Origin: Sulfurimonadaceae bacterium
GTDB taxonomy: Bacteria; Campylobacterota; Campylobacteria; Campylobacterales; Sulfurimonadaceae
Assembly: GCA_041571435.1 (NCBI GenBank)
Contig: JBFFUI010000002.1
Coordinates: 1 to 64,000, forward strand
Direction: 5' to 3'
Length of the DNA: 64,000 nt
The notes under the pieces are model-generated. The model made no database searches and was not told where the DNA came from. It was given only the letters and a program-made list of their open reading frames with translations. Made by a program: the position numbers and the translations under genes. Shown here piece by piece: positions 53,709 through 61,322 of this stretch (position 1 is the first letter of the stretch; every line of letters starts with the position of its first letter).

Positions 53709-53793
53709 TGGTGCGCACGAGAGGATTTGAACCTCCACACCCGTAAGGCACTACCCCCTCAAGGTAGCGTGTCTACCGTTCCACCACGTGCGC
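53709..53793 (-). tRNA. tRNA-Leu(GAG)
   Basis: GCGCACG...CGTGCGC-ACCA acceptor stem, D-loop TGGTGGAACGGTAGAC, anticodon arm CTACC-TTGAGGG-GGTAG, long variable arm, GGTTCAAATCC T-loop; 85 nt. Confidence 0.97.
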
Positions 53794-53796
53794 AGT

Positions 53797-53826
53797 TAAA
53801 GAAAGATGTCAGCCAAAAAGGCTGAC
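53797..53826 (-). terminator. Terminator-like hairpin after atpE
   Basis: GTCAGCC-TTTTT-GGCTGAC followed by ATCTTTCTTT on the minus strand. Confidence 0.6.
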
Positions 53827-53845: not shown

Positions 53846-54160
53846 TTAACCTAGGTAAGGGTTCGCGTATAGTGCGATAAGCGCGATTACTAGAGTATAG
53901 ATAACCTGTGCTTCGATCATTGCAAGAGCGATGAACATAGTTGTCATAAGCTTTCCGCCTAGACCTGGGTTACGTGCAGTACCAGCGATAGTTGCAGCAG
54001 CAGTGTGACCCATACCGATAGCACCACCAAGTGCAGCAAGACCAAGACCAACACCAGCAGCGATCATAGAATAGGCTTTAAGCGTTTCGTTCACTACTGC
54101 TTCTTCTGCACCAAATGCAGCCGCTGCAAGAGCGATCATCAGGAATACGATTTTTTTCAT
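53846..54160 (-). CDS. atpE: F0F1 ATP synthase subunit c
   Basis: GxGxG helix, ARNP loop, IEAQVIY carboxylate; N-terminal extension as in Campylobacterota; start MKKIVF 54160 behind GGAGA. Confidence 0.97.
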   Translation of the reverse strand: MKKIVFLMIALAAAAFGAEEAVVNETLKAYSMIAAGVGLGLAALGGAIGMGHTAAATIAGTARNPGLGGKLMTTMFIALAMIEAQVIYTLVIALIALYANPYLG

Positions 54161-54181
54161 TATATTTCTCCGTTTTAAAAT

Positions 54182-54266
54182 CAAAGTCCGTTCGGCTAGC
54201 GTAACCTATCTGAATCGATAAGCCAGAGCCACATAAATGCGAGCCCTGTCCCTACTTAACACTTTG
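54182..54266 (-). ncRNA. Structured 5' leader of atpE, riboswitch candidate (resembles DUF1646/Na+ riboswitch core)
   Basis: Starts just after TATAAT (54275-54280); CAAAGU/ACUUUG closing stem, GUU-AAG-UAG...CUA-GCCG-AAC internal loop, two nested hairpins. Confidence 0.6.
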
Positions 54267-54320
54267 TATGCGGAATTATAGTGCGTGGGTTATAAATGTT
54301 TGTTTAAAAGCGGAAATTTT

Positions 54321-56492
54321 TTATTTCGCGCGTCCCAAACTTATCTTGTTGCCCTTGAATTCTAGGATCTCAACCTTGATGTCATCGCCTATGCTGATGA
54401 CATCAGCAACATTCTTAATGTGTTCATCAGAGATCTTTGATATATGCAGCAGACCGTCCACACCGCCTGGCAGTTCGACAAAGGCGCCGAAATCAACGAT
54501 GCGTTTGACCTTACCCTCGATCACATCCCCCACTTGATACTCGGGAACAGCTTCACGCTCTTTCGTCGCGATCTCTTCAATATGTTTACGAGCGGCTTTG
54601 ACCCCCTCACGGCTAGTACCGGAGACTTTGACTTTACCGCCTTTACGGTCGATGTCGACCGCGACTTCGAAACGCTCGATGATCTCGCGGATCGTCTTGC
54701 CCGCCTGACCGATGATCTCACCGACACGAGAGGGGTCAATATGAAAGATAGCGTTGCTTGGCAGATCCTCACTGATCTTGATCTCTTTTTCGGCGTCCAG
54801 CATGATGTCAATGATATGGGCACGGCCTTCTCTGGCCTGATAGAGCGCTTTTTGCAGAACATCGAGAGAGATACCACCCAGCTTGATATCCATCTGCAGT
54901 GCTGAGATCCCCTCTTTTGAACCTGTTACTTTGAAATCCAGATCACCGTCATGATCCTCCAATCCCGTGATATCGGAAAGTATCGCGTAGTCATCCCCTT
55001 CGGAGACCATCCCCATCGCAATACCGGCAACAGTATCGGTCAGTTCAAGATCGCCCGCACGCATTGCCATGTAGCCGCCGCAGACCGTTGCCATGGATGA
55101 AGAACCGTTTGACTCCAGGATCTCGGAGACAAGACGGATCGTATTCGACGGCGACTCCAACGTGCACTCCAAAGCGCGTTTAGCCAGGTTACCGTGACCC
55201 AGTTCTCTTCGTTTAGGTGCCCCCATCGGTGATGCTTCACCGACAGAGAAGCCCGGGAAATTATAGTGCACCATAAAACGTTCACTTTGCTGAGCAGTAT
55301 CGCCCAAGGTCTCATACATCTGTGCATCTTTGTCGCCGCCGAGTGTCAAAACGACCAGAGCCTGTGTCTGACCGCGTGTAAACAGGCACGAGGCATGTGC
55401 CGACGGTAGAACATTGGTCTTGATATCGATAGGACGGATCTCGGTAAGTGTCCGTCCATCTGCACGAATGCCATCTTCTAAAATCGCCTGACGGACCATC
55501 GCTGTTTTCACATTGACAAGTGCCATCTTTACATGTTCTTTGTCCCATTCGCTATGCGTTTCCAGAATAGTGTTACGTATCTCACGCAGTGCATTTGAGC
55601 GTTCACTTTTGGCCATCTGACTGATCGCATCTTTTATCGTATGACTGTATTTCTCACGAATAACCGCTTCGATCTCGTCGGTACCCTCGACTTTATGCAG
55701 CTGCAGTGGCTTAGGTGTTTTGACATACGGTGTAAATGCACTCTCATAGGCTTCATTGGCATTTTTTAACGAGCTTTGCACCTGCGAAAGGATCTCTATA
55801 AAGGCCTCTTCATCCAACAGGTTCGACGTATAGCTCTCAATCGTGTCGACACCCATCGCAGGGTCGATCATCGGATCGACCATTGCCGTGGACAGCAGTT
55901 CAACTTCAACCGAACCCTGTGCTTTCATCTCGATCATCAAAAGATCGTTCTTGCTTCCAGCGACGTAGAGGTCCAGTGTACTTTCGGCAAGTTGCGACAT
56001 GGTAGGATTGATGATCAGCTCCCCTTCGACCTTTGCGACGCGGCACGCCGTCACCGAGTTTTTGATATCGATGTCAGAGATGTAAAGTGCTGCTGAAGCT
56101 GCATTCAGTGCAAGGGTCTGCAGATCAGACTCTTCATCTGCACTAAGGACCATCACCGTGATCTGGATGGGGTTCGTGAACCCTTTAGGAAAGAGAGGAC
56201 GGAGAGAACGGTCGATGATCCGCGATGTCAAGGCCTCGAAATCACTCGGCTTGGTCTCTCGCTTGATATAGCCCCCCGGGAACTTGCCTGCGGCGTATGC
56301 TTTTTCGATATACTGGACGGTCAATGGAAGGAACTCGCCGCCGGCAAACTCGTTTTCATCGATCACGACTGTTGCAAGCAGTACACTTTTGCCGCTTTTC
56401 ATCCAGACAGAGCCATTGGCCTGTCTTGCGACATCGCCCAGGGCATACTCTTCGTTTTTATTATCCAGGTCAATTAACACATTGTAGTCCAT
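54321..56492 (-). CDS. pnp: Polyribonucleotide nucleotidyltransferase
   Basis: ARQANGSV, FLPLTV.Y, SRIIDRSLRPLF, FTRGQTQ, RRELGHG, ESNGSSSMA, KH and S1 domains. Confidence 0.98.
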   Translation of the reverse strand: MDYNVLIDLDNKNEEYALGDVARQANGSVWMKSGKSVLLATVVIDENEFAGGEFLPLTVQYIEKAYAAGKFPGGYIKRETKPSDFEALTSRIIDRSLRPLFPKGFTNPIQITVMVLSADEESDLQTLALNAASAALYISDIDIKNSVTACRVAKVEGELIINPTMSQLAESTLDLYVAGSKNDLLMIEMKAQGSVEVELLSTAMVDPMIDPAMGVDTIESYTSNLLDEEAFIEILSQVQSSLKNANEAYESAFTPYVKTPKPLQLHKVEGTDEIEAVIREKYSHTIKDAISQMAKSERSNALREIRNTILETHSEWDKEHVKMALVNVKTAMVRQAILEDGIRADGRTLTEIRPIDIKTNVLPSAHASCLFTRGQTQALVVLTLGGDKDAQMYETLGDTAQQSERFMVHYNFPGFSVGEASPMGAPKRRELGHGNLAKRALECTLESPSNTIRLVSEILESNGSSSMATVCGGYMAMRAGDLELTDTVAGIAMGMVSEGDDYAILSDITGLEDHDGDLDFKVTGSKEGISALQMDIKLGGISLDVLQKALYQAREGRAHIIDIMLDAEKEIKISEDLPSNAIFHIDPSRVGEIIGQAGKTIREIIERFEVAVDIDRKGGKVKVSGTSREGVKAARKHIEEIATKEREAVPEYQVGDVIEGKVKRIVDFGAFVELPGGVDGLLHISKISDEHIKNVADVISIGDDIKVEILEFKGNKISLGRAK

Positions 56493-61124: not shown

Positions 61125-61322
61125 TAATGCCCAAGTGGCCGGTCCGCAGTAAGCTTTGGTTCTCAAAGCCGAAAAAACAGCAAATCGAGTGTCCCATCAG
61201 GCCGCAATCTCTCTGGTTTGATCCATCGAACAAGACCACCGCACACAAGGACATCTACACAAATTCACTAAAAGAAAATGTAGAACCCTCATAATTGCGA
61301 GAAATCGCACCACCCAGGCTAG
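61125..61322 (-). ncRNA. ssrS: 6S RNA (epsilonproteobacterial 'purD motif')
   Basis: About 195 nt after TATAAT (61328-61333); ends pair (GCCUGGGUGG / CCACUUGGGC); position upstream of purD matches the known 6S locus of this lineage. Confidence 0.8.

Follow-up and report, generated by a model that had tools for sequence, protein, structure and literature searches.

A conserved structured RNA in the leader of the stand-alone atpE gene of Campylobacterales, a candidate cis-acting element on the messenger of the ATP synthase c subunit

No other part of the ATP synthase is as abundant as the c subunit, and to our knowledge the way in which its level is set in bacteria with a detached atpE gene has not been established. 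Such a gene is present in the window, as the whole analysed stretch of 64,000 nucleotides from a Sulfurimonadaceae bacterium is called here (contig JBFFUI010000002.1, positions 1 to 64,000); a spacer separates it from pnp. It was proposed in a sequence-only reading that the atpE messenger starts with a closed multi-stem structure, reminiscent of the DUF1646 (Na+) riboswitch or else a candidate for a new cis-regulatory RNA. The structure is present as it was drawn. On the minus strand the spacer holds, in this order, TATAAT, the 5' strand of P1, GUUAAGUAGGGA, hairpin 1, hairpin 2, UACGCUAGCCGAACGG, a linker with the SD and the AUG, and the promoter box, P1, both hairpins, the RBS and the start codon are all found where that reading had placed them (Table 1). 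The predicted length of the leader in the window is about 107-108 nt.

Table 1. Position of the atpE leader elements and of neighbouring features in the window, with the basis of each assignment
Feature	Position	Strand	Basis or remark
pnp	54321-56492	minus	Pfam RNase_PH, PNPase, KH, S1 domains
pnp-atpE spacer	160 nt	minus	leader elements inside
-10 promoter box TATAAT	54275..54280	minus	sequence reading
Putative transcription start, 1-2 nt 5' of P1	54267..54268	minus	inferred from C. jejuni spacing
P1 5' strand CAAAGU	54261..54266	minus	covariation
A-G-U-A strand of the conserved internal loop	54253..54256	minus	GUA in 141/141 module-bearing leaders
Inner mini-helix, 5' side GGG	54250..54252	minus	GG in 82/82 distinct short forms
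Hairpin 1 (P2a), long form only, apex GCAUUUAUGU	54224..54248	minus	covariation
Hairpin 2 (P2b), long form only, loop variable	54204..54223	minus	covariation
Conserved strand UACGCUA	54197..54203	minus	near-invariant in long-form alignment and most short forms
Inner mini-helix, 3' side GCC	54194..54196	minus	CC in 82/82 distinct short forms
G-A-A strand of the conserved internal loop	54191..54193	minus	in 141/141 module-bearing leaders
P1 3' strand ACUUUG, partner of CAAAGU	54182..54187	minus	covariation
A/U-rich unstructured linker	54161..54181	minus	sequence reading; linker folds
SD GGAGA, within the linker	54167-54171	minus	sequence reading
atpE start codon AUG	54158-54160	minus	sequence reading
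atpE, ATP synthase c subunit, 104 aa	53846..54160	minus	Pfam PF00137, E=1.2e-15; ORF
Terminator-like hairpin 3' of atpE, ahead of the tRNA gene	53808..53826	minus	consensus scan
tRNA gene	53712-53793	minus	Rfam search
purD RNA motif RF01069, full-length	61129-61258	minus	63.7 bits, E=1e-9

The minimum free energy fold of positions 54150-54270 is exactly the drawn multi-stem structure. Its energy of -26.8 kcal/mol compares with -20.8 +/- 2.8 kcal/mol for shuffled sequences (z = -2.15), and since 6 of 200 shuffles fold equally well, folding energy by itself gives modest support. Covariation across related atpE leaders had been named as a test of the structure, and these leaders proved to be both conserved and covarying. 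With a covariance model of the long form, which is the form present in the window (model R1), 32 long-form leaders were collected, and the 31 distinct ones were used for covariation: 96.2% of the cells are paired, double-sided changes occur in 17 of the 23 pairs, and the covariation score is 0.692 against 0.196 in shuffles (0 of 500 reach it) and at most 0.130 in slid controls. Double-sided changes were noticed in five of the six pairs of P1, in seven of the ten pairs of P2a (98.0% of cells paired) and in five of the seven pairs of P2b (99.1% of cells paired); the three apical pairs of P2a are almost invariant and its apex, GCAUUUAUGU, is near-invariant. On the basis of this covariation it can be said that P1, hairpin 1 and hairpin 2 are real helices.

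When the leader was compared by BLAST with 60 relatives, matches with E<=1e-13 were obtained in 14 of the 15 congeneric genomes, and outside the genus just the two ends of the leader matched, adjacent to each other. Two forms of the RNA became apparent when the regions upstream of atpE were extracted: the long form, with both hairpins, and a short form, in which GGGA is joined straight to UACGC. Most lineages are without the two hairpins and have the short form, of 40 nt. The strand UACGCUA serves as a junction strand in the long form and as a hairpin loop in the short one, and in some families it is swapped for other loops; the divergent families carry, within a P1 of their own, the hairpin loops GGGGACAGAUCC, GGGGAGAGAUCC, GGGAAUUUAUCC, GGGGAAUCGAACC, GAGGAACGAUUC and GGGAUACACGAACC. 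A pairing of UAG with CUA, which had been part of the original drawing, is not kept, as most short forms read GCAAGCC and an A.A mismatch results. Among the 82 distinct sequences of 100 short-form matches, all six core pairs of P1 and the adjacent outer pair have changed on both sides, with a covariation score of 0.300 against 0.113 in shuffles (0 of 500) and at most 0.052 in slid controls. The sequence of P1 is wholly different among lineages and its pairing is always kept, as in GCGCUAUGU/ACAUAGCG, GCGAAAUC/GGGUUUCGC and UUAAAAUU/AAUUUUAA, and the toleration of G-U pairs in P1 indicates a structure at the RNA level, on the atpE sense strand.

Single families (f1, f6, f10 and f16) contain both the long and the short form in a patchy pattern, and every copy of the insert is clearly homologous, with the same GCAUUUAUGU apex; this combination points to a two-hairpin insert which was cleanly lost several times, or transferred.

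The universal consensus consists of P1, two to five free bases, A-G-U-A, a mini-helix of two G-C pairs with a variable loop, G-A-A, one to three free bases and P1'. The module N-GUA-G(G/A)G...(C/U)C-GAA was found in 141 of 145 distinct atpE-anchored upstream regions, base N being A in 137 of them and U in 4. The other four regions are a locus with an insertion (L006), two loci with GGA for GGG (L039, L049) and one with GAC for GAA (L220). The third position on the 3' side of the mini-helix is G, U or A, depending on the lineage. In genus g71 GAG pairs with UUC, the second inner pair having changed from G-C to A-U in a compensatory manner, and only a register with the helix directly next to AGUA and GAA accommodates this change.

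The bulged-G module of the sarcin-ricin loop and of loop E is recognised by an AGUA strand opposite GAA beside a Watson-Crick pair. The same sequence pattern, including the flanking Watson-Crick pair, is found in the 141 module-bearing leaders, with A as the first base of AGUA in 137, and by this resemblance the AGUA/GAA internal loop may be a module of that type. With the sarcin-ricin loop of 23S rRNA and loop E of 5S rRNA it would share A-G-U-A facing G-A-A, the abutting G-C pairs and invariance amid varying helices; the known modules sit in rRNA, whereas the atpE version sits in an mRNA leader and is known from its sequence. Comparative support for the assignment consists of one compensatory change in a single lineage, that of g71.

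The occurrence of the motif was followed in 151 genomes of one order, Campylobacterales, which is also the scope of the search labelled "phylum", with the long-form model R1, the short-form model R2 and a broader model R3. The models each returned a single match per genome, in 112, 115 and 125 of the 151 genomes, respectively. R1 and R2 undercount the divergent families, and the apparent absence of the motif from f26, f12, f3, g46 and g65 is false negative; in the model-negative genomes whose atpE was located by a protein search, a divergent motif lies directly upstream of the gene in nine of nine. The motif is thus present in at least 142 of the 151 genomes (125 by R3, 11 by R1 only, 1 by R2 only and 5 R3-negative ones checked by hand), in single copy and always directly 5' of atpE; the remaining nine lie outside the hand check except for G053, which has no atpE match to the protein query. 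Among the loci of the model search the motif is directly upstream of atpE in 48 of 49, the last one stopping at a contig edge, and in the first extracted set the same position was found in 28 of 28 rows, one truncated locus and one insertion case included.

When named genomes were scanned with the core pattern, at least 120 matching records were obtained. Among the matches listed are Campylobacter jejuni strain GP013, C. coli LMG 9860, Arcobacter and Aliarcobacter species, Sulfurospirillum, Sulfurovum and other Sulfurovaceae, Nitratifractor, Nitratiruptor, Sulfuricurvum, Sulfurimonadaceae, Hydrogenimonas, two Nautiliaceae MAGs and one uncultured Helicobacter MAG. The AtpE of g71 presumably resembles that of gastric Helicobacter. 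Five bins among the matches listed are labelled otherwise, namely as Bacteroidota, Amylibacter, Proteobacteria (unspecified), Chloroflexi and Acidobacteriaceae (L098, L116, L133, L142 and L189); L098 and L189, which have no convincing P1, look like chance pattern matches, and L116, L133 and L142 may be mis-binned Campylobacterota contigs.

A transcription start downstream of the structure had been considered as a possible objection; the start mapped in C. jejuni lies upstream of it. Dugar et al. 2013 (PMC3656092, supplement files 3 and 4) list for Cj0936 a primary TSS with an 84-nt UTR (85 nt in 81-176), which is located right after GGTTATAATTCGAAT and is the seventh nucleotide after TATAAT. 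In the C. jejuni record L174 the same promoter is followed by the motif, and the same spacing gives an 83-nt UTR with 2 unpaired nt ahead of P1; the TSS published in these files falls 2-3 nt 5' of P1. A helix which begins about 0-3 nt from the TSS, as in 5'-terminal stabilisers, is accordingly found in C. jejuni and is likely in the window from the spacing of the -10 box. Of 111 leaders with a TANAAT-like hexamer, 58 have the last base of this hexamer 6-9 nt 5' of the first paired base of P1, and in another 43, where the fold extends P1 outward, the gap is 0-5 nt. The UTRs of C. jejuni have a mean length of 30.6 +/- 17.8 nt according to Porcelli et al. 2013 (PMC3847290), and against this mean the 84-nt UTR of Cj0936 makes the atpE leader unusually long. 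Logan contigs from metatranscriptomes of relatives break inside the motif and show neither transcript start nor end.

Between P1 and the start codon a conserved expression platform, be it a terminator or an alternative pairing which sequesters the SD, was not found among 153 distinct linkers. Two of the 153 are terminator-like, and most are 20-30 nt long, A/U-rich and close to 0 kcal/mol in folding energy, with the SD free; P1 and the start codon are separated by a median of 23 nt, with a range of 5 to 51 nt. Sequence complementary to the SD is absent from the conserved core. The translational switch which had been suggested, with CUCUG of the first hairpin pairing with CGGAG of the RBS, did not withstand comparison, because CUCUG belongs to the lineage-variable hairpin 1, whose stem differs by genus and which is absent from the short form. 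Of the generic features of a riboswitch, a covarying aptamer-like fold is present and a coupled expression platform is missing. A candidate upstream ORF in the window begins with the AUG of the hairpin 1 apex and runs for 12 codons to the UAG of CGCUAGCC; locus L018 has AUA at that AUG and L048 is without the stop, so neither the ORF nor a leader peptide is conserved and this candidate was rejected.

In a subset of leaders a second hairpin, conserved and lineage-specific, lies between P1 and the SD: AGUC...GACU, then UAAAAC or CAAAGCCC, without a U-tract (loci L035, L038, L040, L084, L093-L095, L102, L107, L111, L117, L121, L124, L125, L134, L136, L140, L143, L145, L158, L166, L182, L187, L193-L195 and L213). 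The records of this subset with a genus or family name belong to Sulfurovaceae, Nitratifractor and Campylobacteraceae. In L006, a locus of the same genus as the window (G004:C1, about 1650-1930), an insert of about 290 bp stands between the motif and the SD of atpE; bounded by the inverted repeats GGGCACCTATAAGAGCCCTAT ... ATAGGGCTCTTATAGGTGCCC, it resembles a miniature transposable element. It follows from this locus that close spacing of motif and SD is not strictly required.

The explanation which we favour, tentatively and at somewhat less than even confidence, is that the leader in the window is the long form of an uncatalogued 5'-terminal cis-acting RNA, carried by the monocistronic atpE mRNA across Campylobacterales, which caps the end of the messenger and presents a docking module. 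A helix at the extreme 5' end, with 0-3 unpaired nt, would leave too few free nucleotides for decay by RppH and then RNase J. Slowed decay would in turn give a longer-lived messenger for the c subunit, which is needed in about ten times the amount of the remaining subunits of the ATP synthase. The invariant AGUA/GAA loop could act as a docking site of the sarcin-ricin/loop-E type for a conserved partner, a protein or the ribosome, which would set c-subunit output; it is the strict conservation of AGUA/GAA that calls for such a partner. The SD and the start codon lie in the unstructured A/U-rich linker and are not sequestered, and on that account the proposed action is on stability and recruitment and is not that of an on/off switch.

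This explanation has precedents. In a review (PMC3997798) atpE is mentioned among leaders which stabilise whole transcripts by occlusion of the 5' end, the RppH of B. subtilis is described as requiring at least two unpaired 5' nucleotides and preferring three or more, and H. pylori is said to rely on RNase J. According to PMC4843948, a stem-loop in the 5' UTR stabilises the vacA mRNA of H. pylori two- to sixfold. With 5'-terminal mRNA stabilisers the atpE leader shares a helix a few nucleotides from the TSS, a highly expressed mRNA and a host group reliant on RNase J. Such stabilisers are, however, defined by position and stability, whereas the atpE leader keeps a 20-nt core and the AGUA/GAA loop order-wide, and a simple protective hairpin would not require this. 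Further points weigh against the 5'-cap and docking explanation: the partner candidates which were tried, CsrA and mimicry of 5S rRNA, are not supported (see below); the sarcin-ricin assignment has the comparative basis given above; the mapped TSS is that of C. jejuni only and the start in the window is a predicted one; and the ~290 bp insert of G004/L006 separates the motif from the SD. Moreover, a riboswitch aptamer typically presents the same picture of conserved internal-loop bases, covarying stems and an optional additional domain.

A new riboswitch class, in which the internal loop and the mini-helix, joined in the long form by the hairpins, recognise an ion or small molecule indicative of energy or ion status (such as an adenine nucleotide, Mg2+ or H+/Na+) and so alter translation or decay of the atpE mRNA, is rather unlikely, although it has much of the expected appearance: conserved bases in an internal loop and junction between covarying stems, an optional peripheral domain with a conserved apex of its own, a UTR far above the C. 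jejuni mean, and a motif bound to one gene in one order, like the orphan purD motif. It is opposed by the missing conserved platform and the mostly exposed SDs, by the variable distance from P1 to the start codon and by the core without SD complementarity, all described above. In addition, the hairpin loop is wholly replaceable in some families, and the invariant part is a generic structural module rather than an obvious pocket. That the motif is the aptamer of a new class for an energy or ion signal, setting the supply of the c-ring subunit order-wide, C. jejuni and probably gastric Helicobacter included, through mRNA stability or ribosome recruitment and not by a terminator or SD-sequestering platform of the classical kind, is a more specific proposal, and we consider it unlikely.

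Improbable in our view, if not to be passed over, is a repressor operator, at which a protein such as an ATP synthase assembly factor, a ribosomal protein that binds loop E or another RNA-binding regulator would lower atpE translation as feedback. The signature of the invariant module suggests a motif class which is frequently a protein-binding site, and a protein bound at P1, which ends 5-51 nt (median 23) from the start codon, could hinder the 30S subunit; the same variability of the SD distance nevertheless speaks against simple steric repression. A table of differential expression in C. jejuni mutants of the sRNAs CjNC140/CjNC110 (PMC10470494) contains atpE and atpB, which hints at post-transcriptional control of the atpE mRNA. 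A candidate protein was not found among those considered. A CsrA site, made of AGGGA and the GGA of the SD, was rejected, Cj0936 being absent from two CsrA RIP-seq supplement files of PMC4894983. The genome's own 5S rRNA shares just 5- and 6-mers with the motif, which is the chance level (about one shared 6-mer is expected at these lengths by our own estimate), and mimicry of 5S rRNA was rejected as well; AGUAGGGA and GCCGAAC are stretches which we take to occur in the 5S rRNA of E. coli.

It is highly improbable that the element is an independent small RNA gene, or a palindromic operator at the DNA level, which merely happens to lie upstream of atpE. P1 is an inverted repeat beside a promoter, and some lineages carry an additional hairpin on the stretch from the motif to the SD, as would suit such an arrangement. 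Yet 151 of the 153 linkers have no terminator between the motif and atpE, P1 tolerates G-U pairs, which would be mismatches in DNA or on the other strand, and the TSS table of C. jejuni assigns the start to Cj0936 as primary, with the UTR length given above.

Whether the RNA belongs to a catalogued family was answered by a search of the 4227 families of Rfam 15. At the gathering score there was no family match at the atpE leader of the window, and the proposal of a candidate new cis-regulatory RNA is borne out in this respect. At E<=10 two chance matches were obtained on 54100-54400: freshwater-2 (18.1 bits, E=1.5), confined to the A/U-rich SD region, and v-snoRNA-1 (E=4.6), in the coding region. 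At E<=1 eleven short or divergent forms, that of C. jejuni included, gave no match. Identity with the purD motif was also rejected, the sole RF01069 match of the window lying elsewhere (Table 1). The ion site of the c subunit reads E-A-Q (...AMIEAQVIY...) in the AtpE sequence of the window, as had been noted beforehand. A c subunit of the Na+ type carries, among other residues, a Ser or Thr after the Glu, and by this signature the E-A-Q subunit is probably of the H+ type. Some Na+ riboswitches precede ATP synthase genes. Membership of the DUF1646 (Na+) or nhaA-I (Li+) riboswitch family, in favour of which stood the suggested likeness of the core and the place of some Na+ riboswitches ahead of ATP synthase genes, can be practically dismissed, since the covariance models matched none of the forms tried, permissive thresholds included, and the c subunit has E-A-Q at its ion site; with these riboswitches the atpE leader shares the location in a 5' UTR.

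Other known systems stand at a greater or lesser distance from the atpE leader. The purD RNA motif (RF01069) is likewise an orphan cis-regulatory RNA, confined to the same bacterial group and to one gene; it differs in having an unrelated sequence and fold, another gene and an entry in the catalogue already. One copy of it is located about 7 kb from the atpE leader in the same window. The ATPC RNA motif is structured and associated with ATP synthase genes, but it is cyanobacterial and lies within atp operons, and it was set apart on the basis of its description. Dedicated devices in the 5' UTR of c-subunit genes exist elsewhere: the chloroplast atpH with PPR10, the factors of yeast ATP9 and the translational enhancer of E. 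coli atpE. With the atpE leader they share the raising or tuning of a many-copy subunit through the 5' UTR; the molecules and sequences differ, and the likeness is one of analogy only.

The Campylobacterales atpE leader motif appears to be undescribed: a literature search which covered little of the subscription journals and PDF supplements found no such element. In the available text of the primary-transcriptome paper PMC3847290 it is not flagged, and the sole metabolite-sensing riboswitch detected there among the 5' UTRs of C. jejuni is TPP. It is nevertheless an RNA conserved more strictly than most protein motifs, in single copy, throughout an order which includes major food-borne and gastric pathogens. 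The element provides a defined and mutable handle on the stoichiometry of the ATP synthase and on 5'-end-dependent decay in organisms with RNase J, and it is a new orphan motif for the hunting of a ligand or protein. The natural long form, the short form and one insertion variant are ready-made comparisons.

Two minor observations concern the atpE gene itself. In the libraries X1 and X2, labelled as sediment metatranscriptomic, short contigs cover 53870-54085 at very high summed depth; the depth over this conserved part of the coding region far exceeds that over the leader and comes from many organisms, so it is unreadable as expression. Residues 1-20 of AtpE (54100-54160, minus strand) form a signal-peptide-like extension, MKKIVFLMIALAAAAFGA, which is followed by EE and is common to all relatives seen, and the Pfam ATP-synt_C domain spans residues 33-95 only.
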